Counted from the first letter of the stretch, positions 790 through 21,414 are shown. The stretch is 32,000 nt of DNA from Nonlabens ponticola (GCF_003966335.1 NZ_CP034549.1:1290001-1322000); one strand, 5' to 3'. Program-made: numbers and translations. The notes: a model not told the origin generated them from the sequence alone.

Positions 790-1548
790 ATGTCTATGGT
801 AGAGAGGTTTGAGAGTATTACGCTTTCGCGAAAGCGTGTTCACCACATTCTACAAAACTTCAAAAAATCGTCTCAACAACTGGGCGACGACCGTAACGCG
901 ATTAGGATAGTGGAAGATAAAGGCAAAAAACTCGTTGTAAAGTCATTCAAGATTCCAAATGCCGTCAACAAATTGGCCTACCGATTTTTAAGAGATAGCA
1001 AGGCAAAAAGATCCTATGAAAATGCAGTCTATCTACAGCAACATAATATAGGAACCCCAGCACCACTGGCTTATCTAGAGCGTGTCGATACGTTGTCTTT
1101 TAAAGATAGTTATTACATAAGCGAGTACGCTGAGCATGATTATACCTATAGAGAATTGATCAACGATAATACTATAGAAAATAAGGAAGAAGTCCTGAAA
1201 GCCTTTACAGCTTTCATGTTCAAGATGCATGAGGCGCATATTTATTTCCTGGATCATTCACCTGGCAACACGTTAATCAAAAAAGTAGGAGATAGCTATG
1301 AGTTTTTCCTGGTGGATCTCAACCGCATGAAATTCTATGATATACCCTATGAAGATCGATTGAAAAACTTTGAACGCCTGTCACCTAAAAAATGGATGTA
1401 CGACATCATGGGTGCAGAGTATGCTAGACTTTCAGGAAAGGATCCAGCTGAATCTATTGCTACTATGTGGTCTTATACACAGAAGTTTCAAGAGAAATAT
1501 CATCGCAAGAAGCGATTCAAAAAAAAGCTCAAGAGTATATTCTCGTAA
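790..1548 (+). CDS. Lipopolysaccharide kinase (Kdo/WaaP/InaA) family protein
   Basis: 252-aa ORF with a kinase-like core (KKLVVKSFK ... IYFLDHSPGNTLI ... FFLVDLNRM), typical of Kdo/LPS-core kinases. It sits among LPS glycosyltransferases. Confidence 0.7.
   Translation: MSMVERFESITLSRKRVHHILQNFKKSSQQLGDDRNAIRIVEDKGKKLVVKSFKIPNAVNKLAYRFLRDSKAKRSYENAVYLQQHNIGTPAPLAYLERVDTLSFKDSYYISEYAEHDYTYRELINDNTIENKEEVLKAFTAFMFKMHEAHIYFLDHSPGNTLIKKVGDSYEFFLVDLNRMKFYDIPYEDRLKNFERLSPKKWMYDIMGAEYARLSGKDPAESIATMWSYTQKFQEKYHRKKRFKKKLKSIFS
817..836. repeat. Iterated palindrome copy 1 (ATTACGCTTTCGCGAAAGCG), inside the LPS-kinase gene
   Basis: Exact 16-nt palindrome at 821-836. Read in frame as I-T-L-S-R-K-R. Confidence 0.95.
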
Positions 1549-2316
1549 TTACTTGAGATTACGCCTGTACAACCACAGCTTTACATAGCGCATAAAAATC
1601 ATGTAACCGCGCAGGTAAGCAATTACAAAACCTACAAAACCATCCAAGAATCCACGTTGTAAAAAATAGTGTTTGAAGAATCCGTAAGTGGGCTTTATAA
1701 GCATATGAAAGGCTGTGATCTTACCTGTTTTCTTATCATAATCCTGTGCCTGTAGGCTGGCATATCGTTGTAGTTTCACAATATGCTTATCAATGTCGTT
1801 ATACTTGTAATGCAAGAATTTTTGATTTAGCGACTCTACGCGGCCATCGGTCACAATCTCTGCATGCACGTGTAGATCTAGGTAGCGACATTTTGATTTT
1901 TTGAAGAATCTAATGACTTTATCATTCTTCCAGCCGCTGTACCGTACTTGTTTGCCCATGAAAAAGTTGCGACGTCCTATCCAGAATCCGGCTAGGTCAT
2001 CATCATTTTCTTCTTCAAGTTTTTTAATGATTTCTTCCTGCAATGCTGGCGTCACGCGCTCATCTGCATCGACAAGTAGGATCCATTCATATTTTGATTG
2101 GGGTATGGCCCAGTTTTTCTGGCTGGCACTGTGTTCATACTCTCTTTGAAGAACGACGTCTACATAAGGTTGAGCAAGTTCAACGGTCCTGTCAGTGCTA
2201 AAGCTATCTACCAGCATCACTTCATCACAAAAGGAAACACCCTTCAAGACCTCTATAATATTGTGCTCCTCATTGTAACATGGGATTAAGGCTGTGATTG
2301 GGTATTTCTTCATCAA
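1549..2316 (-). CDS. Glycosyltransferase family 2 (LPS core, WaaE/KdtX-like)
   Basis: N-terminus ITALIPCYNEEHNI ... LVDSFSTDRT ... LLVDADERV is the GT2 Rossmann/DXD signature. Its stop directly abuts the stop of the convergent kinase gene. Confidence 0.85.
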   Translation of the reverse strand: MMKKYPITALIPCYNEEHNIIEVLKGVSFCDEVMLVDSFSTDRTVELAQPYVDVVLQREYEHSASQKNWAIPQSKYEWILLVDADERVTPALQEEIIKKLEEENDDDLAGFWIGRRNFFMGKQVRYSGWKNDKVIRFFKKSKCRYLDLHVHAEIVTDGRVESLNQKFLHYKYNDIDKHIVKLQRYASLQAQDYDKKTGKITAFHMLIKPTYGFFKHYFLQRGFLDGFVGFVIAYLRGYMIFMRYVKLWLYRRNLK

Positions 2317-2399
2317 AATCTAGCGTGCTTTCTGACAAAAATAGGCTGTAGGTTGGAAATGATGCAGGTATTGTGGACTTTTATAAAAAATTGTCCAAA

Positions 2400-3230
2400 A
2401 TGCCCAGAAAGCCTATCATCTCGTTGATTTTGAGTACTTATAATTCACTAGAATGGCTCAAAAAGACCTTATGGAGTTATGAGCATCAAATCTTTAGAGA
2501 GTTTGAGATCATCATTGCGGACGATGGTTCGGGAAATGAGACGATAGACTTTATTAAAGAGTACACTAGTCAAAGCGACCGTGTCATTAAACATGTGTGG
2601 CATGAGGATGATGGTTTTCAAAAAAGTAAAATTTTAAATAAAGCCATACTCGCCTGCGCAGCAGATTATGTGGTGATGAGTGATGGTGATTGTATCGCTA
2701 GAGAAGATTTTCTACAGATACATTATGAACGCAGAGAGCCAGGTTATTTTTTATCGGGCGGTTATTATAAATTACCACTAGAGTTGTCACAACTCATTAC
2801 CAAGGAGGACATTCTTACACAACGATGCTTTGACCTAGACTGGCTTCATTCTAAAGGTTTACCTGAGAGTTTTAAGAACAAAAAGCTATCAAGTGGTTTT
2901 GTGGAAGCAAGTGTTATGGAAGCAATAACGCCAACAAACGCTAGCTGGAATGGACATAATAGTAGTGGTTGGTTAAAAGACATCATCAAGGTAAATGGGT
3001 TTGATGAGCGCATGCAATATGGCGGTCAAGATCGTGAACTAGGCGAGCGACTTTACAACATCAAGATCAAGTCAAAGCAAATTAGATATAGTGCTGTTTG
3101 CTTGCATCTGGATCATTCTAGAGGATACAAAAACGAGGAAACGCTCAAGAAAAATAAAGCAATACGCAAGGCAACTCGCAAGGAGAAAAGACAATTTACT
3201 CCTCATGGAATTAACAAAGAAGTATCTTAA
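2400..3230 (+). CDS. Glycosyltransferase family 2
   Basis: MPRKPIISLILSTYNSLEWL ... IIIADDGS ... SDGDCI are GT2 motifs. The track ORF starts at GTG 2373. I prefer ATG 2400 because GT2 proteins normally begin a few residues before the (I/L)xxTYN strand. Confidence 0.8.
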   Translation: MPRKPIISLILSTYNSLEWLKKTLWSYEHQIFREFEIIIADDGSGNETIDFIKEYTSQSDRVIKHVWHEDDGFQKSKILNKAILACAADYVVMSDGDCIAREDFLQIHYERREPGYFLSGGYYKLPLELSQLITKEDILTQRCFDLDWLHSKGLPESFKNKKLSSGFVEASVMEAITPTNASWNGHNSSGWLKDIIKVNGFDERMQYGGQDRELGERLYNIKIKSKQIRYSAVCLHLDHSRGYKNEETLKKNKAIRKATRKEKRQFTPHGINKEVS

Positions 3231-4291
3231 TAATGATACTGTATGAATTGATCTAAGGATTTGATGATCAATCCAGCATCAAAATTTTGATACATTTCTA
3301 GACTGTTTGACTTGAATGCGGCTGGTTTTTTATCACCGTACAATTCTGGTTTCAAATCTTTGAGGTGGACTGATAGGTGTTGCTCACCATCTTCTGAAAT
3401 GTTCCATGCCTCTTGTGGTACCCATGGACTGTAGATAGAGAAACTAGGGATATCAAGTGCTTTGGCCATGTTTATGGCGCCACCTTCATTACCTATGATT
3501 GCTGTGCAGTTTGCCAACACTTTTAAGAAGTCTCGCAAGCTGGCTGTAAAATCATCTATTAAAATATGTTCACGAGTTTGTGGTTTGCACAGATGGTAGA
3601 TGGCAAACGCATCATCTTTTTGTGAAGGAATGTAGTTAAAGAAAATCTGTGTGTTGGTTTTCTCAACTAGATGATTTAACAATTGTGCCATGGTCGCAAA
3701 TGGCAAGGTTTTGACCTCACTGGATCCCAAAACGCTTATCATCGTAATCGATTTGTCTAGCTGCGCGCCACTTTGTTCTAACCACTGCTTCCCAGATTCT
3801 ACCTCGGTTTCAGTGAGATGTATGCGTGGCTTTACACTGTAGTCGATATCATCAGTAATTGGTTCCAGCAATCGCAAACGACTGCCTATGGCCCAACCAC
3901 TAGGGAACTGTTGCTTATCTGCCTGGTCACTTACCTTTTCTTGATAGGCAAGAAAACCAAACCATTTATCATATCCTATTTTGTGCTCTGCCTTGAGTAG
4001 TGAGCAAAGAAAGCCACTGTTATTTTTGCTATAAGCATCAAATATGTGCGTGTATTTATTGTTATTCAGCTTTCGCGAAAGCGTAATTATTCCAGCCAAA
4101 CTGCTAAATTCCTGTGGCTTGACAAGTATCAAATTGTCAATCGCTGGATGCCCTTGAACTACAGGAACAGCGTTGTGCACAATCAAGTAATCGACAATCG
4201 CATTAGGATTAGATCTTTTCAACTCGTCTGCAACCACGGTGCTGGTGAGCACGTCGCCTAGCATCTTATATTGAATAAGCAGAACGCGCAC
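3227..4291 (-). CDS. Glycosyltransferase family 9 (LPS heptosyltransferase-like)
   Basis: N-terminal RVLLIQYKMLGDVLTST and C-terminal IGNEGGAINMAKAL are GT9 hallmarks. The GTG start at 4291 overlaps the dapD stop by 1 nt. The stop overlaps the convergent GT2 stop (TTAA at 3227-3230). Confidence 0.8.
   Translation of the reverse strand: MRVLLIQYKMLGDVLTSTVVADELKRSNPNAIVDYLIVHNAVPVVQGHPAIDNLILVKPQEFSSLAGIITLSRKLNNNKYTHIFDAYSKNNSGFLCSLLKAEHKIGYDKWFGFLAYQEKVSDQADKQQFPSGWAIGSRLRLLEPITDDIDYSVKPRIHLTETEVESGKQWLEQSGAQLDKSITMISVLGSSEVKTLPFATMAQLLNHLVEKTNTQIFFNYIPSQKDDAFAIYHLCKPQTREHILIDDFTASLRDFLKVLANCTAIIGNEGGAINMAKALDIPSFSIYSPWVPQEAWNISEDGEQHLSVHLKDLKPELYGDKKPAAFKSNSLEMYQNFDAGLIIKSLDQFIQYHY
4069..4087. 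repeat. Iterated palindrome copy 2 (GCTTTCGCGAAAGCGTAAT), inside the GT9 gene
   Basis: Exact 14-nt core at 4069-4082. On the coding (minus) strand it reads I-T-L-S-R-K-L. Confidence 0.95.
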
Positions 4292-5106
4292 TAGACGGCT
4301 ACATCATATTCTCTCAAGGCATCGTTGAGTGAGGTTTTCTTATTAGTGCTTTCCTTGCGCGTTCCTATAATGAGCGCGCATGGTACGTTGTAGGTTCCGG
4401 CTGAGAATTCCTTGGCATAACTACCGGGAATAACTACCGATCGTGCAGGTACAACTCCTTTCATTTCTTTTGGCTTATCGCCGGTGACGTCAATAATTTT
4501 GGTACTTGCTGTTAGGACGACATTAGCACCTAGAACGGCTTCTTTCTCTACGCGTACACCTTCTACCACGATGCATCTAGAACCTATAAAAGCGTTGTCC
4601 TCAATGATTACCGGCGCAGCTTGTAGTGGCTCAAGAACACCACCTATACCAACGCCACCACTTAAGTGAACATTTGCACCTATTTGCGCACAACTACCTA
4701 CGGTTGCCCAAGTATCTACCATGGTACCTTCAGAAATATGAGCGCCTATGTTGACATAACTAGGCATCATGATCACACCTTTTGAAATATAAGCACCGTG
4801 TCTCGCCACAGCGTGCGGTACAACGCGTATCCCTTTTTCTTTATAACCAGTCTTGAGTGGTATTTTATCGTGAAATTCTAATGGGCCACATTCAATGGTC
4901 TCCATTTTCTGGATTGGGAAGTAGAGCACCACGGCTTTCTTGACCCATTCATTGACTTGCCATGAACCTTCAATAGGTTCTGCAACGCGCAGTTCACCTA
5001 GATCAAGTAAATTGACAACACTGCGTATAGCATTTTGAGTTACTGGATTTTCTAACATGGAGCGGTCGTCCCATGCGTTTTCTATGACATTCTTAAGTTG
5101 TTCCAA
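4291..5106 (-). CDS. dapD: 2,3,4,5-tetrahydropyridine-2,6-dicarboxylate N-succinyltransferase
   Basis: Near-colinear similarity to E. coli DapD over long blocks (MPSYVNIGA...EGTMVDTWATVGSCAQIG.NVHLSGGVGIGGVLEPLQA.P.IIEDN.FIG). Confidence 0.93.
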   Translation of the reverse strand: MEQLKNVIENAWDDRSMLENPVTQNAIRSVVNLLDLGELRVAEPIEGSWQVNEWVKKAVVLYFPIQKMETIECGPLEFHDKIPLKTGYKEKGIRVVPHAVARHGAYISKGVIMMPSYVNIGAHISEGTMVDTWATVGSCAQIGANVHLSGGVGIGGVLEPLQAAPVIIEDNAFIGSRCIVVEGVRVEKEAVLGANVVLTASTKIIDVTGDKPKEMKGVVPARSVVIPGSYAKEFSAGTYNVPCALIIGTRKESTNKKTSLNDALREYDVAV

Positions 5107-5245
5107 AGCGTGGTTGTTTTATATCCCAAAGATAAAGCACCGGTAGTTATTTTTGCTTGACTTCACAGTACGGTGTGGATCGATTTGCATGACTGCCTTA
5201 ACTTGAGATACTAGTGTTTGCAGCTGTTTTACCGCTTTAAATACC

Positions 5246-5253
5246 TATTTTTG
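5246..5253 (+). promoter_or_regulatory. Bacteroidota -7 promoter box TAnnTTTG (TATTTTTG) upstream of ruvX
   Basis: Exact match to the TAnnTTTG consensus, 8 nt before the ruvX ATG at 5262. Confidence 0.4.
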
Positions 5254-5261
5254 CAGCGATT

Positions 5262-5681
5262 ATGGGACGTATACTAGCTATAGATTACGGTAAAAAGCGC
5301 ACGGGCATCGCGGTGACTGATCCACTGCAAATGATTGCTAGCGCCCTATGCACCGTAAAGACCTATGAACTCAAGAAATTTCTAGAAGATTACCTTAATC
5401 AAGAAGAGGTTGAAGCCATTGTGATAGGTGAGCCCAAACAAATGGATTATACCGATAGTGAATTGGGTGGTGTGATTAATGCTTTTGCTGGCGAGCTCAA
5501 GGAAAAATATCCGCAGTTGAGTATTGAGCGCGTAGATGAGCGTTTCACTTCAAAAATGGCATTCCAGTCCATGATTGATAGTGGTATGAAAAAGAAACAA
5601 CGTCGCGATAAAGGCATGGTTGATCAAATTGCCGCTGCTATTATCTTGCAAACCTATCTGGATAAAAAACAACGACATTAA
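5262..5681 (+). CDS. ruvX: Holliday junction resolvase-like protein RuvX (YqgF)
   Basis: MGRILAIDYGKKRTGIAVTD ... VDERFTS ... DQIAAAIILQTYL is the YqgF/RuvX signature. Confidence 0.9.
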   Translation: MGRILAIDYGKKRTGIAVTDPLQMIASALCTVKTYELKKFLEDYLNQEEVEAIVIGEPKQMDYTDSELGGVINAFAGELKEKYPQLSIERVDERFTSKMAFQSMIDSGMKKKQRRDKGMVDQIAAAIILQTYLDKKQRH

Positions 5682-5692
5682 AAAGTGAGAAT

Positions 5693-6283
5693 ATGATTTT
5701 ACCTATTGTGGCATACGGCGATCCTGTCTTGAGAAAAGAAACAGTAGAGATCGATGCAGATTATCCCAAGTTACAGGACTTTATTGCCAACATGTGGGAA
5801 ACGATGGAAAATGCCAGTGGTGTAGGTCTTGCCGCACCGCAAGTGGGCGTTGCAGTACGTGTATTTGTAGTAGATACCGCACCATTTAGTGATGATCCCA
5901 ATTTATCTTCAGAGGAGCAAAAAGAACTGGCTGCCTTTAGAAAAGTATTTGTCAATGCACAAATTGAGGATGAATCTGGTGATGAGTGGATTTTTAATGA
6001 AGGTTGTTTGAGTATTCCCAATGTGCGTGAAGATGTCTCAAGGCAGGAAAATGTCACTATCACTTACTATGATGAGGAGTTTAAAAAACATACAGAGACT
6101 TATGATGGACTTATCGCACGTGTTATCCAACATGAGTACGATCATATAGAAGGAATTTTATTTACTGATAAAATCTCCAGCCTTAAAAAGCGTTTGATTA
6201 AAAATAAACTGAATAATATTTCCAAAGGAAAGACTAGCGTTGACTATCGCATGCGTTTTCCTGATGTGAAAGGCCGCAGATAA
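5693..6283 (+). CDS. def: Peptide deformylase
   Basis: All three deformylase motifs are present: GVGLAAPQ, EGCLSIP, HEYDHIEG. Confidence 0.95.
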   Translation: MILPIVAYGDPVLRKETVEIDADYPKLQDFIANMWETMENASGVGLAAPQVGVAVRVFVVDTAPFSDDPNLSSEEQKELAAFRKVFVNAQIEDESGDEWIFNEGCLSIPNVREDVSRQENVTITYYDEEFKKHTETYDGLIARVIQHEYDHIEGILFTDKISSLKKRLIKNKLNNISKGKTSVDYRMRFPDVKGRR

Positions 6284-6294
6284 CTTGTGTTTTA

Positions 6295-6302
6295 TATATT
6301 TG
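6295..6302 (+). promoter_or_regulatory. Bacteroidota -7 promoter box (TATATTTG)
   Basis: Exact TAnnTTTG match 22 nt upstream of the ATG at 6325. Confidence 0.4.
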
Positions 6303-6324
6303 CGCCGCTTAAAAAAAGAACTTC

Positions 6325-6735
6325 ATGAGTCTAGATAATATTTTATCGATCACTGGTAAACCAGGTTTATATCAATTGAAAAATAAAGCCCGCAGTGGTT
6401 TTGTAGTTCAGTCTATCGTGGACAATAAGACCTCGATTGTAGGTATGAACCACAATGTGAGCGTTCTCAAGGATATCTCGATCTACACTTATGATGCAGA
6501 GATGCCATTAAAAGATGTTTTCAATAAAATGGCAGCCAAAGAAGATCAAGGCCCAGCGATCAATCATAAAAGCAGTAAGGAAGAATTGTCTGCCTACTTC
6601 AATGAAGTGCTTCCAGAATATGATGAGGATCGTGTTTATCCCAGTGATATTAAGAAAGTAGTGCAGTGGTACAACATCTTACAAAAGAATGATTTACTGC
6701 CTAGTGAAGAAGACGCTGCAAGTGAGGAAGAATAA
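6325..6735 (+). CDS. Conserved hypothetical protein (DUF5606-like)
   Basis: 136-aa ORF (ILSITGKPGLYQLKNKARSGFVVQS...) of the type commonly found just downstream of def in Bacteroidota. It has an acidic C-tail and no known function. Confidence 0.6.
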   Translation: MSLDNILSITGKPGLYQLKNKARSGFVVQSIVDNKTSIVGMNHNVSVLKDISIYTYDAEMPLKDVFNKMAAKEDQGPAINHKSSKEELSAYFNEVLPEYDEDRVYPSDIKKVVQWYNILQKNDLLPSEEDAASEEE

Positions 6736-6757
6736 TTCCTGCAGCTACTCAATAATA

Positions 6758-6794
6758 AAAGAGCTTCTACTGTGGTAGAGGCTCTTTTGTTTTT
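6758..6794 (+). terminator. Rho-independent terminator
   Basis: 13-bp stem (AAAGAGCTTCTAC / GTAGAGGCTCTTT, one G-U), TGTG loop, then a T-rich run. Lies 23 nt after the stop at 6735. Confidence 0.75.
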
Positions 6795-6796
6795 CA

Positions 6797-6831: not shown

Positions 6832-6844
6832 TAACGCACGACCA

Positions 6845-8045: not shown

Positions 8046-9516
8046 TGATAAGTTGCTCTAGGATTGTTCTTGTAGGCCCGTAGCTGGGACGATGAATATA
8101 GTCAGATTTTACGATCTCACCATCTTTATTGATTATCGTGTATGTTGGGAAACCTTCAATATTCAAGGCCTGCTGCATCCATACAGATTGTTCATCTTCT
8201 AGAAAATAGTGTACACCTTTAATCTCATATTGCGCGATGCTGGGTAAATACGTTTCTTTTCTGCTATTATGACATAGGTAAACAAAGTACACTTGATCTT
8301 GATAATCTGCATGCAGCTTTTTAGACGCATCTTTAAATTCCTGAATGCACGGCTGGCACCAGGTAGCCCAGTTATCTATGTAAATAACCTTACCATTTGC
8401 AGCCCTGATAAGATCATCAAGAAATGCGCTGGACGATTCGGCATTAAATTCTTCTATAATAGCCTCTTCTGGAAGTGCTGGATCTTCTAGTAATTTTTTG
8501 AGTTCATCATATCTATCAGCCAATTCCTCATAGAGCTGTTTTTCTTCAATAAAATCTTGAAGCTGCTCACGAGTATCTTCAAAGACCTTGAGGTCTTGAT
8601 CATCAAAGCTGCGCATGATTAATTTATGGGCGACATAGGAGTGAAGCAGTCGCCTGTCCTCATTGCTCAAAATAAGTTTAACTGCTTTGATGTCGTTTTG
8701 AGTTTTGTCAAATATGGGTTCTTCGGATCCTTGTACGGCCGCCCGCATAGGATAATGGTACGACAAATTGTAAATGAGCCTCGATACTAGATTTGTGTTG
8801 ACCAGATCATCATTTTCCAGCTCAGGAATATCAGCGACGAAATCAAAAAATGAATCGTCAGGATCTGGAGCTGGATAACCTCTATAATTTCTATAATTGA
8901 CATAATCGATGAGCGTTGCTGCTGCAAAGTACTTTTCTTCGGCGCTGGTGTATTTTTCAAAAAGCGGTGTGGTTTCCAACTCATTAAACTGCTTATTGTA
9001 CATGGCGACTGGTCGCTGATCTAACAAATATTGTTTAAGGTCCTGTGAGCCATTTTCTAGCTCAAGGTCATAGAACTCGTCAATGCCCAGAGACATTTCC
9101 TCGCGATAAGCTTTCAATAAACGATTCTCTTTAGAACGATCACCTTTAAATTCAATGCTGTTGGAATATTCTACTGGATTTATGTGATCCACAAAATTGA
9201 TATGAATGGAGTCGCCTGGAACGGCTATGATTGGCATGACATTATATGCGGTAATCATTACTTCTTGAGGCTGTTTGATGTCAACGATTGCTTTAAAAGA
9301 GCCATCAGTTTTTACCTTGATATCTTCTACCTGCATGCTTGCCGTAGTGTAATCATAAAACCGCAAGCTCACAGCATTTCCTGCGGTGCTATCAGTTACC
9401 GTGATCTTACCAGCAATAATTGTTTCTGCGTCAACGTCATACTCGATGGATTGATCTTCCACGCAAGATGAAAGCAGCAATACAAAACCTACAAGCAACA
9501 TTATTATTCTATTCAT
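8038..9516 (-). CDS. TlpA/ResA-family thiol-disulfide oxidoreductase lipoprotein with long N-terminal extension
   Basis: Leader LLVGFVLLLSSC. C-terminal thioredoxin fold with WATWCQPC (CxxC) and ...GFPTYTIINKDGEIV. About 370 aa of N-terminal region is uncharacterised. Confidence 0.8.
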   Translation of the reverse strand: MNRIIMLLVGFVLLLSSCVEDQSIEYDVDAETIIAGKITVTDSTAGNAVSLRFYDYTTASMQVEDIKVKTDGSFKAIVDIKQPQEVMITAYNVMPIIAVPGDSIHINFVDHINPVEYSNSIEFKGDRSKENRLLKAYREEMSLGIDEFYDLELENGSQDLKQYLLDQRPVAMYNKQFNELETTPLFEKYTSAEEKYFAAATLIDYVNYRNYRGYPAPDPDDSFFDFVADIPELENDDLVNTNLVSRLIYNLSYHYPMRAAVQGSEEPIFDKTQNDIKAVKLILSNEDRRLLHSYVAHKLIMRSFDDQDLKVFEDTREQLQDFIEEKQLYEELADRYDELKKLLEDPALPEEAIIEEFNAESSSAFLDDLIRAANGKVIYIDNWATWCQPCIQEFKDASKKLHADYQDQVYFVYLCHNSRKETYLPSIAQYEIKGVHYFLEDEQSVWMQQALNIEGFPTYTIINKDGEIVKSDYIHRPSYGPTRTILEQLINE

Positions 9517-10933
9517 TGCCTCTCAATTCTAGCATGACAACATTCTCGACATGGTGCGTTTGTGGGAACATATCTACCGGTTGTAGTTTTGTAATTTCAT
9601 ACTTCTCATCTAGTAACGCAAGATCACGTGCCTGTGTTGCACTGTTACAACTTACATATACTATGCGTTGCGCCGCAAGAACCAGTAGTTGGGCCACGAC
9701 ATCCTTATGCATACCATCACGCGGTGGATCTGTTATCACCACATCAGGTTTGCCGTGCGTCGCTATAAAGTCCTCATTGAAAACGTCTTTCATATCACCT
9801 ACATAAAAACTAGCGTTCTCTATATTATTATTACGAGCATTTTCTTGAGCATCTGCAATCGCCTGTGGTATAGACTCGATGCCTACTACTTTTTGAGCCT
9901 TTGCAGCAACGAATTGGGCGATGGTTCCCGTACCTGTATATAAATCATAAACCGTTTCATTGCCTGTAAGTCCTGCAAAATCTCTGGTGATGCGATAAAG
10001 TTCCAGCGCTTGTTGAGAGTTGGTCTGGTAAAAGGATTTGGCACTTATCTTGAATTTCAAATGTTCCATTTGCTCCATGATGTGATCCTCGCCGTCGTAT
10101 AAAATCACGTCTTGATCATAAATGGTGTCATTTGCCTTCTCATTGATGATATATTGCAGCGATTTTATCTCAGGAAATTGATTTTTGAGATGTTCCAGTA
10201 AGGCTATTCTATGCTGTTTATGATCTTCAAAAAACTGGATGACAACCATTACTTCGCCGGTCGACGCCATGCGCAACATCAACGTTCTCAAGGTACCGTG
10301 CTTTTCTCTTGGGTTGTAGTAGGATATCTGTTCCGCTTTCGCGAAAGCGTGCACACTTAAACGAATACGCTCACCAATAGCTGGGTGCAAGTGACATTCA
10401 TCCAGGTGCAAGATCTTGTCCCACATGCCAGGAATGTGAAAACCCAGTGCTTTTTTATCATCGATCTCAACGTCAGATTGTATTTCTTCTAGCGTCAACC
10501 AGCGATTTGCAGAAAAGCTGAATTCCATCTTATTGCGGTAATAGTATTGCTCACTACTACCAGCGATAGGAGTGATCTCTGGCAATTCAAGATGACCTAT
10601 GCGCGTGAGATTTTGCACCACTTCTTTTTCCTTGAAATATAACTGGCTCTCATAGGTCATGTGTTGCCACTTACAGCCGCCACAAGTGTCAAAATGCTTA
10701 CAAACGGGCGTCGTCCTGCGGTCTGACTTCTTGTGAAAGTTTGTGACCTTGCCCTCATAGAAGGATTTACGTTTTTTGAAGGTAGTTATGTCAACAACAT
10801 CTCCAGGAACGGCATCAGTTAGGAAAATGACTTCGCCAGCTTCTGTTTTGGCAACGCTTTTTCCTCGCGCACCAGCATCGACAACGGGTACATTTTCAAA
10901 TGTTTTTTGGGCTCTTCTTCTTCGTTTTGACAT
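9509..10933 (-). CDS. rlmD: 23S rRNA (uracil-C5)-methyltransferase RlmD/RumA family
   Basis: TRAM-like N-domain, Fe-S cysteine cluster CKHFDTCGGCKWQH, SAM motifs DLYTGTGT and DPPRDG, catalytic VYVSCN. The track start is 10999. I prefer ATG 10933 (MSKRRRRAQK...) because the extra 22 residues look non-conserved. Confidence 0.88.
   Translation of the reverse strand: MSKRRRRAQKTFENVPVVDAGARGKSVAKTEAGEVIFLTDAVPGDVVDITTFKKRKSFYEGKVTNFHKKSDRRTTPVCKHFDTCGGCKWQHMTYESQLYFKEKEVVQNLTRIGHLELPEITPIAGSSEQYYYRNKMEFSFSANRWLTLEEIQSDVEIDDKKALGFHIPGMWDKILHLDECHLHPAIGERIRLSVHAFAKAEQISYYNPREKHGTLRTLMLRMASTGEVMVVIQFFEDHKQHRIALLEHLKNQFPEIKSLQYIINEKANDTIYDQDVILYDGEDHIMEQMEHLKFKISAKSFYQTNSQQALELYRITRDFAGLTGNETVYDLYTGTGTIAQFVAAKAQKVVGIESIPQAIADAQENARNNNIENASFYVGDMKDVFNEDFIATHGKPDVVITDPPRDGMHKDVVAQLLVLAAQRIVYVSCNSATQARDLALLDEKYEITKLQPVDMFPQTHHVENVVMLELRGNE
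10329..10349. repeat. Iterated palindrome copy 4 (TGTTCCGCTTTCGCGAAAGCG), inside rlmD
   Basis: Exact 16-nt palindrome at 10334-10349. The coding strand reads A-F-A-K-A-E-Q. Confidence 0.95.
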
Positions 10934-11084
10934 AGAATGCAAAATTAAGCCAATCTGTAACAAATGCCGTTTGACAGGTGATAAAACTAGCAAGTTCATG
11001 ACTTAGCTGGTAACAGATTTTATCCCAGCTTTAAGGATAAGCAGCGACAAGGTTTTGTAAATTGCAATAAACTGAAATATTTAC

Positions 11085-13947: not shown

Positions 13948-15882
13948 TTAGTTAGACACGCTAACTTTAGTAGATATTTCTTGCTCATCTTGAGTCGTTA
14001 CTCTCACGATATATATTCCAGCAGCATAGTTGGACGTATTAAACGTGTAACGCTCCGCTAGATCACTATTGCTTTCACTAGTAATTAGTCTACCAGCAAG
14101 ATCGTAGATAGAGATATCGGCTACATCTTGCATGTCGCGATTTAGAACTGTAAGAGTTGCATTGGTGTTGTTTTGGAAAATATTGAAGCTATCTTCATTA
14201 GCTAGAACATCATCGTTGCTTAATGTGCTTTGCTCTTCGAAAACAATGCTGTAACGATCTTCAAACGTTCCTTTCTCTACAGTGATTTCGAAGCTGTCAT
14301 TTAAAATGTCGTGATACGTGTTATTCAACTTATCGTGTATGAAGATGTCTTCTGTATCAAAATTGATCATGTCATAAACACGTACATCAAAAGTAGAAGT
14401 AGCTTCTTGAGATGCGAATCCTAGTGGCACATCAGTTTCCTCTTTATTGAATGGTACCGTTTGTATAACAAACTCATTGTTTGCTAGAGGCATAAACATA
14501 TCCGTGGCAACACGATTTGCTGCATTACTTCCTTCTAGACCACGATCCCAACCTATGGTACTATCATCACCAAAGGCAAGCGTGATACTTCTGTTATACT
14601 GACCGTTGATAAATGCATTAATCTTAATTCTAGATCTCATGGGAGTACCATTGGAATCTAATGCTTGAACACTAGATGATCCAGGAGCAGATTTAAATAA
14701 ACTTGATGTTGGGTTTTCCCTAACGAAAACACGATGAGAATTTTTAAAAGTAGCATATCCGTCAGTGTTGAGTGTAAAACCATCCTCTACATTTCTTTGG
14801 ATAACAAATCCTTGACCTATCGCAGCATATCTTCTGGAGGCCGTATTACCTACTGGTGTAATACCGCCATCTCTTCCTACAGATCCACTCAAGGGCTCGC
14901 CGCTAGAATCATATCTTCTAAATGTTGCATTTTCATACATACCATCTGTACCATCAGTTGCGGTTCCTGGAGTATAAACACCATAACCACCTTCATAATC
15001 TACCAATTTGTGTGTAGTAGGTTGAGAATCCCAGAAATAAGCCTCAGCCGAAATCTCTGTATTTTCTAATAAAAATGTTTTTAAGTCAAGTGCTGATGGA
15101 TATGGATTACCAACTAATGAAAAATCACCAGCTTTTACACCTACGGTGATATCACCAGAATTAGGAATACCTCTAAAATCATATCGTTGTCCAGAGCCTA
15201 GTTCAGATGACTCAATGTTTGGTCCAGTTCCTAAAACGCCTTTCATAGTGAAACCATATCCTGGTAAAACGATCGCCGTTGGGTCTGCAAAAGCTTGCCA
15301 CCCACTATAACCGCCACCACCGCCAGAACCATCACCTACGCTATTGTAACTGTATAACCACCTTGAAGCAATACGTAGATCCTTAGTCACTATCGTTGGA
15401 CCGCTTTCAGTAGAAGGATTTGTAAAATCTTGCTCATCTGTCCGACCATCATTTCTTGATCTTTCATATAGTCTAGCGCGGTTTGCATCAATTACCAGAT
15501 CAGTTTCTCTAGCAAATCCTTCCATCAATAGTGGATAGTAAATCTGCGTGTTAGAAAATCCAACTCCAGAATTTACAGGAGCACTCCAATAGTTGTAGGT
15601 AAAATTATCTGCAACACCTTCTTGAAATACAGAAAAAGTTCCAGCGCCGCCGTTAGCTGTCGCGTTTGGCTCTAACTGTATCAGTTGCGCCTCATCGCGC
15701 ATGTAAATTGCAGATCCAGGTGTATCTGCCACCTCATCAGGTGCGTCGCGCAATACAATACCTTGCTTCACGACGATGTCGGTTCCTTTTGAGTAAATGA
15801 AGGCATTATTGTTTACCTGTACCTGCGCCATCGCAAGGCTGGTAGTGAATAATGCAACTAGAATTATGGTAATGTTTTTCAT
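13948..15882 (-). CDS. Secreted protein with T9SS type A C-terminal sorting domain
   Basis: Signal peptide MKNITIILVALFTTSLAMAQ. The last ~80 aa (LTVLNRDMQDVADISIYDLAGRLI...AAGIYIVRVTT...KVSVSN) match the Por/T9SS CTD pattern. The body has no domain I recognise. Confidence 0.75.
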   Translation of the reverse strand: MKNITIILVALFTTSLAMAQVQVNNNAFIYSKGTDIVVKQGIVLRDAPDEVADTPGSAIYMRDEAQLIQLEPNATANGGAGTFSVFQEGVADNFTYNYWSAPVNSGVGFSNTQIYYPLLMEGFARETDLVIDANRARLYERSRNDGRTDEQDFTNPSTESGPTIVTKDLRIASRWLYSYNSVGDGSGGGGGYSGWQAFADPTAIVLPGYGFTMKGVLGTGPNIESSELGSGQRYDFRGIPNSGDITVGVKAGDFSLVGNPYPSALDLKTFLLENTEISAEAYFWDSQPTTHKLVDYEGGYGVYTPGTATDGTDGMYENATFRRYDSSGEPLSGSVGRDGGITPVGNTASRRYAAIGQGFVIQRNVEDGFTLNTDGYATFKNSHRVFVRENPTSSLFKSAPGSSSVQALDSNGTPMRSRIKINAFINGQYNRSITLAFGDDSTIGWDRGLEGSNAANRVATDMFMPLANNEFVIQTVPFNKEETDVPLGFASQEATSTFDVRVYDMINFDTEDIFIHDKLNNTYHDILNDSFEITVEKGTFEDRYSIVFEEQSTLSNDDVLANEDSFNIFQNNTNATLTVLNRDMQDVADISIYDLAGRLITSESNSDLAERYTFNTSNYAAGIYIVRVTTQDEQEISTKVSVSN

Positions 15883-15994
15883 AAAAAACGTCTATACTTA
15901 TTACAAAAATATACTCTTTAAATGAGTAATATCGTTAATTTCAGGCATATTACTACCTAAATACAAATAGGTCGGCAAAATACATATAAAACCG

Positions 15995-16186
15995 ATGAAC
16001 GAAAACAATAAGCAGCTATTTAACGGTATTTTAATTATCGTTGGTGGTGCGTTACTCATTTATACTCTGACAGTTACCACGGCAAGCATCTATACTCAAA
16101 TCTTGGGTATCATCTTTCTCATGGTAGGTGCTTATCGCGCTAGTAAACATTGGTCTATTCATAAAAATGACCATCTAGATGAGTAA
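15995..16186 (+). CDS. Small two-TM membrane protein
   Basis: 63 aa with two hydrophobic helices (LFNGILIIVGGALLIYTL / ILGIIFLMVGAY). Its stop overlaps the ATG of the Smr gene (ATGAGTAA). Confidence 0.45.
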   Translation: MNENNKQLFNGILIIVGGALLIYTLTVTTASIYTQILGIIFLMVGAYRASKHWSIHKNDHLDE

Positions 16187-16709
16187 GTTCAAGAAAGGAG
16201 ATCAAGTGCTGGTAATTGACGATGATGTGAGTGGTGTGGTAGCTTTCGCGAAAGCGGAACAAGTAACCATCCTATCCACAGACGACATAGAGTTACAGTA
16301 TCATGAACAGGAATTGATACTAGATCAGCGTTTCAATGTCAAGGGCATCGTACCTATGAAAAAGGAAGTTGTTAAAAAATCAAAGCGCCGCATACAATCA
16401 CGTAAAAAAGCAGCGTTCATACCAGCGGTTGAGGTAGATCTACACATACACCAATTGACCGATAAATCGCAGTACATGGACAATTACGACATGCTCAACC
16501 TGCAAATCGACACCGCTAGAGATAAAATTGAATGGGCAAAAAGAGAACGAGTACCCAAACTCATTTTTATCCATGGAGTAGGTGAAGGCGTCCTAAAACA
16601 GGAACTAGAATTCCTGCTAGATCGCTATGAGTATCTCAAATACTATGATGCCGACTATCAAAAATACGGTCTAGGTGCTACCGAGGTTTACATCTATCAG
16701 AACAGCTAG
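16179..16709 (+). CDS. Smr (MutS2-related) domain protein
   Basis: C-terminal VEVDLHIHQL...KLIFIHGVGEGVLKQEL is the Smr-domain DLHG/HGxG pattern (here DLHI). Confidence 0.75.
   Translation: MSKFKKGDQVLVIDDDVSGVVAFAKAEQVTILSTDDIELQYHEQELILDQRFNVKGIVPMKKEVVKKSKRRIQSRKKAAFIPAVEVDLHIHQLTDKSQYMDNYDMLNLQIDTARDKIEWAKRERVPKLIFIHGVGEGVLKQELEFLLDRYEYLKYYDADYQKYGLGATEVYIYQNS
16242..16261. repeat. Iterated palindrome copy 5 (GCTTTCGCGAAAGCGGAACA), inside the Smr gene
   Basis: Exact 14-nt core at 16242-16255. Reads A-F-A-K-A-E-Q. Identical over 20 nt to the reverse complement of copy 4. Confidence 0.95.
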
Positions 16710-16712
16710 AAT

Positions 16713-17618
16713 CTAGTCCTCTACAAATTCTGGTGTAACTGTAATTGAAATACCTGATGTAGTGAAAGATCCAAAATCTAATTGGTCAAAGACCAATTCC
16801 TTGCCTTCGCCATTGAGTACCAGATTTTGAAAATCAAATTGGAGTGCGCTGCGTCTAGTATAGCTATTAGGTCTGTATTCGTTTATAGGCGTTGACGCTT
16901 CGGCTCTAATTTCTGCGTTTAGATAAAACGGCGTTTCATCTTCATCTAGATCATCTCGAGGGTCCAGATTACCATTGAGGTCTTCCTGTATTGTTGGGAT
17001 GCCATCGCCGTCATCATCAGGATCTAGATAGTTAGGTATATTATCGCCGTCTGTATCTAGACTCAAGTTCATCGATATCTGTCCATTGACGATTACGACG
17101 CCTTCTTGATTTGTGGGGACATTGTCACCATCATCGTCTGTATCAATGTTATCTGGTAATCCATCATTATCTGAGTCTAGACCTGATTCAAGATCTGATG
17201 GTATGCCATCGTTATCATCAAGCGAAAAAGTAGTCGTGGTAATAATAAAGGTTCCGTTCTCTGCATCAAAGGATTCTGTTACTCGAGGTGAGACCGGTGG
17301 TACATTACCGCAAAAATAGTCTCTATCTGGAGCAGCGTTGTATCGACGATAATCAACAATGTTGTCGTTGTTTAAATCAAAGTCACTATAAGTACCATCA
17401 ACCGTTAAAATATCATCGCTAGTAGAAAATTCAAGAGAAAGGCTTTCAAAATTGCTCTGGTCAATTTTATAGAATACGTAGTCTCGATCTCCTGTTGTAG
17501 CGGTAGGCAAACAGGCCTGTAGTGCCACGCCGTCAAAATCCAAATCCTCGACAACGATGTCACCGTCATCACAAGATAAGATGATGCTGGCAATTAATAA
17601 GGGTAATATCTTTTTCAT
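16713..17618 (-). CDS. Lipoprotein with thrombospondin type-3-like calcium-binding repeats
   Basis: Leader LLIASIILSC. Repeated DxDxDGxPDxxD units (DSDNDGLPDNIDTDDDGDNVP, DTDGDNIPNYLDPDDDGDGIP). Confidence 0.7.
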   Translation of the reverse strand: MKKILPLLIASIILSCDDGDIVVEDLDFDGVALQACLPTATTGDRDYVFYKIDQSNFESLSLEFSTSDDILTVDGTYSDFDLNNDNIVDYRRYNAAPDRDYFCGNVPPVSPRVTESFDAENGTFIITTTTFSLDDNDGIPSDLESGLDSDNDGLPDNIDTDDDGDNVPTNQEGVVIVNGQISMNLSLDTDGDNIPNYLDPDDDGDGIPTIQEDLNGNLDPRDDLDEDETPFYLNAEIRAEASTPINEYRPNSYTRRSALQFDFQNLVLNGEGKELVFDQLDFGSFTTSGISITVTPEFVED

Positions 17619-17679
17619 GAATTCAAAGGTAAGCGATCAGTTTGAAGTTGATAAACGTTTAATATGTAGGTAGATTATA

Positions 17680-17687
17680 TACTTTTG
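17680..17687 (+). promoter_or_regulatory. Bacteroidota -7 promoter box (TACTTTTG) immediately upstream of the start codon
   Basis: Exact TAnnTTTG match ending 5 nt before the ATG at 17693. Confidence 0.4.
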
Positions 17688-17692
17688 CAAAC

Positions 17693-18847
17693 ATGAAGCA
17701 AGTTTATCTAGACAATGCTGCCACCACACAAATGCGTCCTGAAGTTGTGGAGCGCATGGTGCAAGTCATGAGTGAGGTGCATGGTAACCCTAGTTCAACA
17801 CACAGCTACGGTCGTAGTGCAAAATCGTTGATTGAAACAGCTCGTAAAAATATTGCAAAGCAACTTAACGTCACCGCAGCAGAAATCATTTTTACCTCTG
17901 GCGGCACTGAGGCTGATAATCTAGCTATCCATAGTTGCGTGCGTGATCTAGATGTAAAACGCATCATCACCACTGGTATTGAGCATCATGCAGTGGTTTA
18001 TATTGTGGATTATTGTGCAGCAAAATATGGTACAACTGTACAGCATGTCAATCTGCAAGAATGCGGTACGCCAGATTATGAGCATCTAGAAAAACTACTT
18101 AACGCTAGTGATGAAAAAACGCTGGTTTCTCTCATGCATATCAATAATGAGATAGGTAATCAACTAGACCTAGATCGAGTAGGTAAGCTGTGTCGAGAAC
18201 ATGGTGCATTATTTCATAGTGATTGCGTACAATCTATAGGACACTATGAAGTAGATCTTAAAAATACACCTGTAGATTTTACGGCGGTGAGCGCGCACAA
18301 GTTTCATGGACCCAAAGGTGTTGGTTTTGCTTTTATACGTAAAGGTACTGGACTCAAACCATTGATTTTGGGTGGTTCCCAAGAGCGCGGCATACGTGCT
18401 GGTACAGAGAGCGTCCATAATATAGTGGGCATGGATATCGCGCTACAAATAGCGTACGATAATCTTGAAAAAGAGCGTGCTTATGTACGAGGTCTCAAAG
18501 AGTATTTTAAGCAAGAGCTAGAGAAGCAAATACCAGCGGTAAAATTCAATGGAAAATGTGGCGATCATGAAAACAGTACGTACACCTTGCTCAATGTTTG
18601 CTTGCCATGCGATGCAGACAAAGCTGCCATGCTATTATTTACCATGGACTTGAAAGGAATTGCCTGTTCAAAAGGTAGTGCCTGTCAAAGCGGTAGCCAG
18701 AAAGGATCTCACGTTTTATCGCAAGTCCTGAATGATGAGGATCTCAACAAACCAAGTTTAAGATTTAGCTTCTCGATCTATAATACTAGAGAAGAGCTGG
18801 ATTATGTTGTTGGTGTTTTGAAGGAGTATTTGGACAGCCTAAAGTAA
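17693..18847 (+). CDS. Cysteine desulfurase (class V aminotransferase, NifS/IscS-like)
   Basis: VYLDNAATT, FTSGGTEADN, PLP-lysine motif SAHKFHGPKG, and a catalytic Cys region (SKGSACQSG). Confidence 0.9.
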   Translation: MKQVYLDNAATTQMRPEVVERMVQVMSEVHGNPSSTHSYGRSAKSLIETARKNIAKQLNVTAAEIIFTSGGTEADNLAIHSCVRDLDVKRIITTGIEHHAVVYIVDYCAAKYGTTVQHVNLQECGTPDYEHLEKLLNASDEKTLVSLMHINNEIGNQLDLDRVGKLCREHGALFHSDCVQSIGHYEVDLKNTPVDFTAVSAHKFHGPKGVGFAFIRKGTGLKPLILGGSQERGIRAGTESVHNIVGMDIALQIAYDNLEKERAYVRGLKEYFKQELEKQIPAVKFNGKCGDHENSTYTLLNVCLPCDADKAAMLLFTMDLKGIACSKGSACQSGSQKGSHVLSQVLNDEDLNKPSLRFSFSIYNTREELDYVVGVLKEYLDSLK

Positions 18848-18898
18848 TTTTCAAGCATTCTAGTCGTCTTGTTGTAATAAAGTCATTTGATAATTTAA

Positions 18899-18928
18899 CT
18901 GACGACTGACAACTGACAACTGACGACT
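18899..18928. repeat. Heptanucleotide tandem repeat (CTGACRA)x4
   Basis: CTGACGA CTGACAA CTGACAA CTGACGA CT, between the convergent stops at 18847 and 18934. TAGTCGTC at 18861-18868 is complementary to GACGACTA at 18922-18929. Confidence 0.8.
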
Positions 18929-18933
18929 ATTAA

Positions 18934-21414
18934 TCAGAACCTCATCGCCAGCCTGAAATTAAGAACTCGTGGCGTCAAAAAATTAGGTATAGCTATCTGG
19001 CGTGAATTGGCGATGTCGCGTACCCATATATTAGTAATGCTATTTTGGTTGTCGAACATGTTGTACAGCTCAACGCCTATAAATACTTCATCAAATTTTG
19101 AGAAGGTACGGCTGTCATTCTGCGCATCCTTGAATACATAATTGATACCCACATCCGCACGACGATAATCTCGCAGTCGGAATTGGAAGTCATAAGGATC
19201 TGCATAATTGGGTGAGCCACCAGGTAATCCAGTATTATAAACAAGGTTCAAGTACATGCGCACTTGAGGTATGTTGGGCACATAATCCTGAAAAAGCATT
19301 GCAAATTTTAATCGCTGGTCTGTAGGTCTAGAGATAAAGCCGCGATCGTTTAGGTTTTCCTCAGTTTTAAGATAACCAGCAGATATCCAACTTTCCGTGC
19401 CTTTGATGAATTCACCATTTAAGCGTAGATCGGCTCCATAAGCGTAGGCAGTCGCCTCATTGTTTGCACGATAGCGTATGCGTACATTTTCTAATGTGTA
19501 TGTGTTGACGTCGCTTAAATTTTTATAATAAGCCTCGCTCGTCAACTTAAAAGGTCTATCATTCCAGCTAAAACTCCAGTCATTACCCAGTACAAGGTGA
19601 AAGGATTGCTGTGCCTTAACATCTGGCACAACGGCTCCATTTTCATCGCGCAATTCTCTATAAAAAGGTGGTTGGTGATAAATACCTGTCGATAGCCTAA
19701 AGAGCATGTCCGTATTTGCCCAATCCGGTTTGATAGCAAACTGACCACGCGGCGAGAATACCGTTTGGGTAACACTCTCGATGCCATCACCACTTACATT
19801 CCAGGTATGTGTACGAGCTCCTAGATTCCAGAATATCTCATGATCACCTAGATAACCGCGACTGCTGTATTGCGCAAAGGCTTGTAATCGTTGTATGTCC
19901 ACATCATTATCGGCTCTAATACTAGTAAAAGGCACCAGCGGCGCGCTAAATGGTGTGTAGGGTTCATCATTGCGCAAGTCTGCAAATGGTGGTCGCACGC
20001 TAAAACCAGCACTGTCAATCACCGTGTATTCTCTCACACGATCGCGTATATTCTCCACATTGACTTTAACGCCCCATTCCAGCAGATCGCTCTCCTTTTT
20101 GCCATCGTCAAATACATAAGTACCTCGATGCTCAACAGTCCCTATAAGTGCATCAAGATCATTGCGACCATGCTCTAATTCTGATCCTATTCCTGTGACA
20201 AAATCTACCTCACCTAGATCGTCGCTACCTATATCGGTATTAGGCCTGCCCAATCCATATCTGGCTAGAATGTCATAATGCTCTTGCTCTTGAGTCAAAT
20301 AAACGCTACTGATAAACCTCAAATTAAGCTGTTCACTTACATCATAACTAGCCTTGAGCGCTCCAAAATAAGTTTCATACTGGTCTTCTTCCTGTCCATC
20401 ATAATTAATGACCACTGCCTGTGGTTCTTGTACGGTACCAAAGTTTGTCTGTCGATCTTCTGGTTCAAAATCATAACTGTTGACAGCAATGTTTCCCAAA
20501 AAATCCAGCTGAAACTTTGGTGTGATCTGGTAGGTCAAATAGGCTTGCGCATCAAAGAATCGCGGCACGGCGTTGGCCTGTGTTTCTCTTGAGTTGATAA
20601 ATAGACTGTTGTCCCTATAGCGCAGTCCGACAATGGCTGTTAACGCTTTCGCGAAAGCGGTACCCTCTACAAACGCACTTGCACCCAATAAGCTGGCGTC
20701 TATACCAGCGCCAAAATCTGTAGGGCGTCTATAATCAATATTCAAGACGCTACTCAATTTATCGCCATATTTTGCCTGGAAACCACCTGCTGAAAAATCT
20801 ACCGAACGCACCAAATCAGAATTTACCACACTCAAACCTTCCTGTTGACCGCTGCGTATCAAGAATGGACGATATACCTCGATCTCATTAATATAAATCA
20901 AGTTCTCGTCATAATTACCGCCACGCACTGCATACTGCGTGCTTAATTCATTATTGTTATTCACGCCAGGTAAGGAAAGAAGGATGTTCTCAATACCTGG
21001 CTGCGCGCCTGGAATACGTCTTAAAAGTTCTGGTTCAATAGTGGTAATACCTCTAAATTCTCTAGTATTTCTATTAGTAATGACAACCTCTGCAAATTGC
21101 TCAACATTCACATCAAGCACTGGGTTGAATTCAAAAATCTCACCTGGCTTCAAACGCAAGTCTTTAATGACAACAGGTTTAAAATTGATGCTGGTAAACC
21201 TTATTTCTAGTGATTGATTTGATGGCACTTGTAATTGATAGAAACCAGTGGCATTACTTGCAGTTCCCGTGCTTGAATCGTTGGCTAGTGAGATATTTAC
21301 ATTAGCAATAGGTTGCTGATCCTTATTGAGTACAACACCTTGAAACGTAGCAGTTTGCGCCAGACTTGCTTGAATTAAAAATAAAGGTAATAGGAGTAAA
21401 AGTAAATTTCTCAA
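18934..21414 (-). CDS. TonB-dependent receptor with N-terminal carboxypeptidase-regulatory-like domain
   Basis: Signal peptide, a CarboxypepD_reg-like beta-sandwich (FQGVVLNKDQQPIANVNISL...TGFYQLQV), a plug domain (VRGGNYDENLIYINEIEVY) and a terminal aromatic residue (...LAMRF). Confidence 0.88.
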   Translation of the reverse strand: MRNLLLLLLPLFLIQASLAQTATFQGVVLNKDQQPIANVNISLANDSSTGTASNATGFYQLQVPSNQSLEIRFTSINFKPVVIKDLRLKPGEIFEFNPVLDVNVEQFAEVVITNRNTREFRGITTIEPELLRRIPGAQPGIENILLSLPGVNNNNELSTQYAVRGGNYDENLIYINEIEVYRPFLIRSGQQEGLSVVNSDLVRSVDFSAGGFQAKYGDKLSSVLNIDYRRPTDFGAGIDASLLGASAFVEGTAFAKALTAIVGLRYRDNSLFINSRETQANAVPRFFDAQAYLTYQITPKFQLDFLGNIAVNSYDFEPEDRQTNFGTVQEPQAVVINYDGQEEDQYETYFGALKASYDVSEQLNLRFISSVYLTQEQEHYDILARYGLGRPNTDIGSDDLGEVDFVTGIGSELEHGRNDLDALIGTVEHRGTYVFDDGKKESDLLEWGVKVNVENIRDRVREYTVIDSAGFSVRPPFADLRNDEPYTPFSAPLVPFTSIRADNDVDIQRLQAFAQYSSRGYLGDHEIFWNLGARTHTWNVSGDGIESVTQTVFSPRGQFAIKPDWANTDMLFRLSTGIYHQPPFYRELRDENGAVVPDVKAQQSFHLVLGNDWSFSWNDRPFKLTSEAYYKNLSDVNTYTLENVRIRYRANNEATAYAYGADLRLNGEFIKGTESWISAGYLKTEENLNDRGFISRPTDQRLKFAMLFQDYVPNIPQVRMYLNLVYNTGLPGGSPNYADPYDFQFRLRDYRRADVGINYVFKDAQNDSRTFSKFDEVFIGVELYNMFDNQNSITNIWVRDIANSRQIAIPNFLTPRVLNFRLAMRF
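20644..20659. repeat. Iterated palindrome copy 6 (CGCTTTCGCGAAAGCG), inside the TonB-dependent receptor gene
   Basis: Exact 16-nt palindrome. The coding strand reads T-A-F-A-K-A-L. Confidence 0.95.

Follow-up and report, generated by a model that had tools for sequence, protein, structure and literature searches.

The 32,000-nucleotide stretch of the Nonlabens ponticola chromosome analysed here (NZ_CP034549.1:1290001-1322000, hereafter the window) holds seven exact copies of GCTTTCGCGAAAGC, an exact 14-bp palindrome carrying 28 bits of information (hereafter the word), and one copy with two mismatches, compared to 0.07 expected from dinucleotide shuffles. Five of the exact copies lie within genes. 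Comparison of these copies with their orthologs and with the rest of the genome indicated that the in-gene copies are very probably typical instances of a highly iterated palindrome that is shared across the clade, written by base substitution and kept at the DNA level, with a pattern suggesting that the word is read on double-stranded DNA by a dimer. The exact word occurred 637 times in the host chromosome (2.87 Mb, 40.7% G+C), where it was by far the commonest 14-mer and where base composition predicts 0.006 occurrences.

Replacement of equal-length segments in host genes

None of the five host proteins in the window, whose families were confirmed by Pfam (Table 1), showed a change in length compared to its orthologs. 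For RlmD, no indel was found at the site across 80 orthologs, and the family consensus, K-x-F-A-x-x-N with F219 and A220 nearly invariant, indicates that the F-A of AFAKA was already there before the word. The word was exact in four of the five other Nonlabens rlmD loci and carried one mismatch in the fifth; the host RlmD and its counterpart in Nonlabens antarcticus share 84% identity. At the Smr and TonB-dependent receptor sites, a variable segment of equal length was overwritten. The Smr word, exact in three other Nonlabens and with two mismatches in N. antarcticus, aligned without a gap to unrelated residues in about 35 other genera (for example, VVAFAKAEQ versus IVTKVKNNV), and the receptor word, exact in two other Nonlabens, aligned in the same columns and without a gap to segments such as VSKDSKF in other genera (GTAFAKALT versus AVSKDSKFS). 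The GT9 glycosyltransferase had an exact word in one Nonlabens ortholog (IISLSRKL) and a one-mismatch form in another (IIMLARKL), with no indel, and the kinase showed no insertion-sized difference from its N. ulvanivorans ortholog, with one 1-amino-acid alignment gap nearby.

An earlier reading of the window, made from its sequence only (hereafter the sequence-only reading), had raised replacement rather than insertion as a possibility and had proposed scoring each site as an indel or a substitution patch. All five sites scored as substitution and none as an indel, and the wider comparison agreed: when 87 genic sites of relatives were mapped onto the host genome, 47 carried the exact word at orthologous codons, and 31 of the 40 sites absent from the host genome aligned without a gap, the other nine having gaps in poorly aligned stretches.

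These alignments bear directly on the possibility that the copies stem from a mobile mini-element inserting in frame, of the kind represented by repetitive extragenic palindromic (REP) sequences and their RAYT transposases, miniature inverted-repeat transposable elements or Rickettsia palindromic elements. The conserved TTAC head beside the palindrome does resemble REP anatomy, and REPs, like the word, reach hundreds of copies. However, REPs are extragenic, imperfect and dependent on a Y1 transposase, whereas the word is perfect, about two thirds of its copies lie inside genes and their flanks are not copies of one sequence; in addition, the host genome, which is 99.99% complete, contained no Y1 (RAYT) transposase gene (no match to PF01797). 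The Rickettsia palindromic elements, to which the sequence-only reading had loosely likened the copies, are also palindromic DNA read in frame inside unrelated proteins, but that likeness fails because they are insertions of about 100-150 bp that add a peptide, whereas the word overwrites a segment of equal length. Given the ortholog alignments and the absent Y1 transposase, we rejected insertion of a mobile element as exceedingly unlikely.

Selection on the peptide, in which AFAKA or ITLSRK would be an ancestral protein motif and the nucleotide identity a coincidence, is almost certainly wrong. RlmD comes closest to such a case, with its nearly invariant F-A and with FAKAE encoded by different codons in the distant genus Leeuwenhoekiella. 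Ancestry of the peptide, which the sequence-only reading had named as grounds for giving up a DNA-level origin, thus applies to the F-A of RlmD; in contrast, the Smr, TonB-receptor, kinase and GT9 sites carry unrelated residues outside Nonlabens, one third of all copies are intergenic, and the same codons recur in every copy. These results contradict peptide selection and support the view of a DNA-level phenomenon rather than a conserved peptide. Mapping of AFAKA onto the predicted structure of RlmD (mean predicted local distance difference test score, pLDDT, 84.6), also suggested beforehand, placed it at the C-terminal end of the helix spanning residues 207-222.

Table 1. Copies of the word in the window, with positions counted from the first nucleotide of the window.
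Copy	Position	Core start	Strand	Host gene or context	Reading or feature
Kinase copy	817..839	822 (core 822-835, exact)	+	Kdo/WaaP-type kinase gene, 790-1548	Codons 10-17, I-T-L-S-R-K-R; canonical 5' arm ATTAC
GT9 copy	4069..4082	4069	-	GT9 glycosyltransferase gene, 3227-4291 (minus)	I-T-L-S-R-K-L, residues ~68-74
rlmD copy	10335..10348	10335	-	RlmD-like U5 methyltransferase gene, 9509-10999 (minus)	A-F-A-K-A, residues 218-222
Smr copy	16242..16255	16242	+	Smr-domain gene, 16179-16709	A-F-A-K-A-E-Q, residues 22-28
TonB copy	20645..20658	20645	-	TonB-dependent receptor gene, 18934-21414 (minus)	A-F-A-K-A-L, residues 253-258
Decayed copy, GCTTTCGCCGAAGC	23068..23081	23068 (2 mismatches)	-	M23 peptidase gene, 21424-23163	F-G-E-S; canonical GTAAC arm kept
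Intergenic copy	26861..26874	26861	.	Between aldo/keto reductase gene and Xer-type recombinase gene	
Intergenic copy	29469..29492	29474	.	Between two outer membrane protein (OMP) beta-barrel genes	24-bp perfect palindrome, ATTACGCTTTCGCGAAAGCGTAAT

Maintenance at the DNA level and turnover

Among the Nonlabens RlmD genes, the codons flanking the word varied synonymously (TTA/TTG, GTG/GTC/GTA/GTT, TAC/TAT), whereas synonymous positions inside the word never did. The comparison of synonymous sites in the flanks, another of the checks proposed beforehand, gave this result for the Nonlabens orthologs: the 14 bases of the word were exact and neighbouring synonymous sites variable. This conservation extends over considerable divergence, as all Nonlabens species relatives are about 74% identical to the host genome at the DNA level.

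Sites were orthologous with those of the host genome in 22 of 28 cases for other Nonlabens, compared to 4 of 20 for Dokdonia. The Dokdonia rlmD gene (L197:10195) bears its own copy in other codons, reading TLSRKR near residue 65 as opposed to AFAKA at residue 218 in Nonlabens, and the difference between the two genera at this gene is one of turnover with density preserved. Among three N. ulvanivorans-like sequences (96-98.5% identity), sites were stable and the sole difference was one G-to-A change in a CpG. The intergenic copy at 26861 was conserved across N. ulvanivorans strains apart from this G-to-A variant, which lay on a TARA scaffold.

Genome-wide, the mismatch spectrum was steep, with 637, 80 and 26 copies at 0, 1 and 2 mismatches, respectively, and C-to-T and G-to-A changes were present among the decayed copies. 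At orthologous positions, mismatch counts were bimodal, with either 0 or 4-8 of the 14 bases differing and almost no intermediates. One form, GCTTCCGCGAAAGC, in which the fifth base is changed from T to C (K to E in the AFAKA frame), made up 23 of the 80 one-mismatch copies and was also the one found in RlmD of N. ulvanivorans. This variant may represent a second form that is tolerated.

Extended consensus, reading frames and shared strings

The core lies within a wider symmetric consensus, TTAC-core-GTAA. Of the 1274 half-sites, 326 had TTAC 5' of the core, and the full 22-mer with both arms was present in 46 copies genome-wide. A weaker, C-poor and G/T-rich 5' flank extended to about -19 on both strands in genic and spacer copies (C at 2-10% compared to a background of 20%; flank consensus AAGGTTTTTGATGATTAC), and the whole symmetric context covers about 50 bp.

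Copies were assigned to the longest open frame, with a minimum of 120 codons; on this basis, the approximate genome-wide counts were 226 for AFAKA, 107 for LSRK and 91 for FRES, with 213 copies intergenic or in shorter frames; the preference for the AFAKA frame is real (chi-square p = 2e-17). The readings that the sequence-only reading gave for the copies in the window hold (two of ITLSRK, three of AFAKA, and F-G-E-S for the decayed copy), but its finding that only two peptide readings are used was a small-sample effect. Its statement that all five intact intragenic copies are in frame is correct as to the readings but uninformative, because any position in an open reading frame is read in some frame.

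Each frame proved to favour its own form of the extended consensus. In the LSRK frame, ATT ACG CTT TCG CGA AAG CGT AAT gives I-T-L-S-R-K-R-N, which is the top residue at every position, and in the FRES frame the consensus translates as L-R-F-R-E-S-V-I. In the AFAKA frame, the 3' GTAA was never used, because GCG TAA would be a stop; it was replaced by GGAA (38 copies), GCAA (25 copies) or AAAA, giving AFAKA-E/Q/K. The 19-20 nt strings shared between unrelated genes, to which the sequence-only reading had drawn attention, are real and follow from these preferences. ATTACGCTTTCGCGAAAGC (ATTAC plus core), which has the canonical arm, occurred in 171 copies genome-wide, and TGTTCCGCTTTCGCGAAAGC (TGTTCC plus core), which has the stop-avoiding arm, in 27. 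Because the extended consensus and in-frame stop avoidance account for the identity, no gene-to-gene transfer is needed to explain either string.

The earlier interpretation of this identity as DNA-level spread, by insertion or by copying between copies, found no support in the flanking DNA. Half-site pairs sharing at least 12 nt of flank were more numerous (84) than the 15 given by an independent-column model. However, the long shared flanks were traced to duplicated DNA (the assembly overlap and one repeated locus) and to preferred words such as TTTTGGGATTAC (seven copies), past which the sequences were unrelated, with identity between copies ending about 12 nt out, where the degenerate consensus ends. 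The flanks were themselves degenerate and belonged to several word families, and were not copies of one element. Copying between copies was therefore rejected, as the excess of shared flanks dissolves into duplicated DNA and preferred consensus words.

A more restricted form of DNA transfer is short templated patch conversion, in which gene conversion or repair would write equal-length blocks of 14 to about 38 nt, templated either by other copies or by a dedicated sequence. This process could produce the steep genome-wide spectrum, the 4-8 differences with almost no intermediates at sites absent from the host genome, and the 84 half-site pairs with long shared flanks. Nevertheless, a DNA divergence of about 26% would by itself lead to 4-8 differences, the lone close-strain polymorphism is a single base, the long-flank excess has the sources just described, and the presence of several flank families argues against one template. 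In addition, published models of uptake-sequence drive reach similar patterns by point mutation alone. Nothing requires short templated patches, and we regard them as improbable.

Abundance, spacing and taxonomic range

The first ~36 kb of the contig (1-36700) is repeated in its last ~35.5 kb at 99.7% identity with small indels. This terminal repeat is an untrimmed circular overlap, giving a true chromosome size of about 2.8366 Mb, and the four palindromes counted twice within it leave 633 unique copies.

Copies of the word occurred at about 1 per 4.5 kb (0.22 per kb), with a uniform density from origin to terminus (14-26 per 100 kb). Their spacing was far more even than random, with a coefficient of variation of 0.63 compared to 1.0 for random placement (lowest of 1000 simulations, 0.89), and gaps of less than 1 kb made up 1.3%, compared to 20% expected. 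The intergenic share was 33%, a 3.4-fold enrichment over the 9.9% obtained for random positions, and genic copies fell disproportionately within the first 10-20% of open frames (151 of 424), as seen for the kinase copy. The excess early in open frames may reflect tolerant N-termini and signal peptides, or non-coding DNA upstream of genes that was taken for part of an open frame. The neighbours of closely spaced copy pairs were housekeeping genes and offered no functional clue.

The largest word-free gaps corresponded to low-GC islands or to a tandem-repeat gene. All three of the N6/N4 DNA methyltransferase genes in the genome lie in two such islands (2547535-2589630 and 1671708-1685083; G+C content, 33-35%), and the islands are probably recently acquired restriction-modification systems. 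Also among the largest palindrome-free stretches was chromosome positions 22900-34400, which contains long tandem repeats (periods, ~408 and ~381 bp) and is probably one giant repetitive gene.

The gene block of the window was matched in all 38 other Nonlabens species genomes searched, and all 26 other Nonlabens species genomes in which the word was counted held 312-858 copies. A sample of 300 Flavobacteriaceae genomes, covering 266 genera, contained only two more genera that were rich in the word (409 and 797 copies); the titled records containing it were from Nonlabens and Dokdonia. The word was absent in the 16 other families of the order sampled, the 10-mer core did not rise above background in about 145 other genera, except for a weak excess in three, and examination of the DNA around rlmD in about 75 other genera revealed no other iterated word. 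A description of the word was not found in the searchable literature, and it is apparently undescribed.

Candidate machinery and phage

The host genome encodes ComEC, DprA, a ComEA-like protein and an AddAB-like gene pair; ComEC, DprA and ComEA-like proteins are near-universal. It contained no Vsr, C5 methylase or Dam-type methylase. These absences bear on the proposal, made for the highly iterated palindrome 1 (HIP1) of cyanobacteria, that such words are by-products of a DNA methyltransferase and very-short-patch repair, acting here on the TCGCGA or CGCG core. The core does contain TCGCGA and two CpG, and C-to-T and G-to-A changes are found among its decayed copies. However, the genes of such a system are absent or, in the case of the three N6/N4 methylases, confined to palindrome-free low-GC islands; in addition, a 14-bp core with about 50 bp of context is far longer than any methylase site, and even spacing is not predicted by this process. 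We therefore rejected an origin by methylation and repair, which appears very improbable.

The word could alternatively act as a Chi-like signal for the AddAB helicase-nuclease, with the G/T-rich 5' flank providing a zone for RecA loading that could be used from either side. Consistent with such a role are the AddAB-like gene pair, a density resembling that of Chi in E. coli, the presence of the G/T-rich flank on both strands and the absence of the word from a lytic phage. In contrast, known Chi sites are asymmetric words of 5-8 nt that are read on one strand and oriented with replication, whereas the word is a 14-bp perfect dyad. Polarity was looked for and none was found, since flank strength was the same on origin-proximal and terminus-proximal sides (p = 0.71), and a Chi-like function is highly unlikely.

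Carriage of the word by phage was also rejected. The lytic Nonlabens phage P12024S (35.7 kb) had no copy at up to two mismatches, compared to about eight expected at host density, a 36-nt consensus query matched no flavobacterial phage, and a scan of IMG/VR returned mostly single, chance-level matches.

Origin of the copies and proposed function

The comparisons indicate that the word is created in place by base substitutions that leave protein length unchanged, arising where a protein tolerates AFAKA, LSRK or FRES, and that it is then held letter-perfect in the DNA while neighbouring synonymous sites randomise. Every copy is pulled toward the same extended consensus, with the reading frame deciding which arm variant is allowed. 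The perfect dyad, the symmetric footprint of about 50 bp, the uniform density and the strongly even spacing suggest that a dimeric protein recognises double-stranded DNA at the word, and the gain from each site appears to level off once there is about one per 2-8 kb.

What such recognition would serve is more tentative. A recombination-coupled drive or a self-DNA tag of the uptake-sequence type is possible, if short of an even chance, and a chromosome-organising or repair-protein site kept by selection is rather unlikely, with other explanations taking up the remainder. The broader idea that the word is the signal of a self-DNA system in marine Flavobacteriaceae, either a drive acting through uptake or recombination or a factor that organises the chromosome, with the word read as double-stranded DNA by a dimer and the system operating without type IV pili, is a somewhat doubtful possibility; if true, it would add a third independent class beside HIP1 and the DNA uptake sequences (DUS) of Neisseriaceae and uptake signal sequences (USS) of Pasteurellaceae.

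Several observations weigh against these proposals. The host genome had no secretin and no pilus or type II secretion system ATPase (T2SSE) over the cut-off, so that the known uptake-sequence machinery is absent and an uptake-like role would need a receptor other than the type IV pilus; searches of the genome found no reader protein, and the functional part of the account is deduced solely from the pattern. The perfect dyad, at 0.22 per kb, also contrasts with DUS and USS, which are asymmetric 9-12-mers found about once per kb. With regard to the origin of the copies, the only close-strain polymorphism found was the single G-to-A change, and at about 74% DNA identity a single-step substitution and a short templated patch are indistinguishable. 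Finally, gene calls were made by a longest-open-frame heuristic, making the frame and intergenic counts approximate.

Relation to known iterated words

The word is closest to HIP1 and to the DNA uptake sequences, yet is a member of neither. Like the word, HIP1 (GCGATCGC) is a vastly over-represented perfect palindrome found in spacers and, in all frames, in genes; it is clade-specific, kept at the DNA level and has no agreed function. In contrast to the 8 bp of HIP1, the word has 14 bp (22 with arms), is about 5-20 times sparser and occurs in Bacteroidota (Flavobacteriaceae) rather than cyanobacteria, and its sequence is neither GCGATCGC nor a described alternate HIP. Strongly even spacing and a symmetric flank bias of about 50 bp further set it apart, as does the lack of any conserved methylase or Vsr to match the methylase link proposed for HIP1.

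DUS and USS share with the word a clade-specific exact sequence present in hundreds of copies in genes and spacers, a use of frames shaped by peptide tolerance, an extended weaker flank and even spacing. They are likewise missing from recently acquired islands and mark DNA exported to other genera. However, they are read by type IV pilus machinery, whereas the genome carrying the word has no secretin or pilus ATPase, and natural transformation is, to our knowledge, not known for the word-rich genera.

We know of very few bacterial clades in which one exact word has been written hundreds of times into the clade's own genes, and the origin and reader of such words, long debated for uptake sequences, are still debated for HIP1. 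The word described here is unusually informative, with a 28-bit core, perfect symmetry, even spacing and a range of three genera among the genomes sampled, and it resides in a genome that has no pili, RAYT or conserved methylase, features which together make it a clean system for finding a reader protein. For annotation, the AFAKA, LSRK and FRES peptides that recur in word-rich genomes are DNA-driven and should not be taken as protein motifs.

Occurrences outside the word-rich genera

A weak, scattered excess was found in another genus of the family (G067, 2.4 Mb), which had 14 exact copies, 42 copies of the 10-mer core (compared to 5 for a control word) and many NNTTTCGCGAAAGC variants. These could be relics of a lost system or the product of repeated imports.

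A different situation was seen for a heavy-metal resistance cluster of about 27 kb in the host chromosome (2521985-2548894), which encodes P-type ATPases, CzcA/B/C-type efflux proteins and a multicopper oxidase and contains eight palindromes. The cluster is also present, with a DNA identity of 75-95%, in four other genera (L327-L331) that otherwise lack the word, indicating that the word marks DNA exported from the clade and can serve as a practical watermark for it. The recurring cluster includes a pair of copies exactly 933 bp apart.

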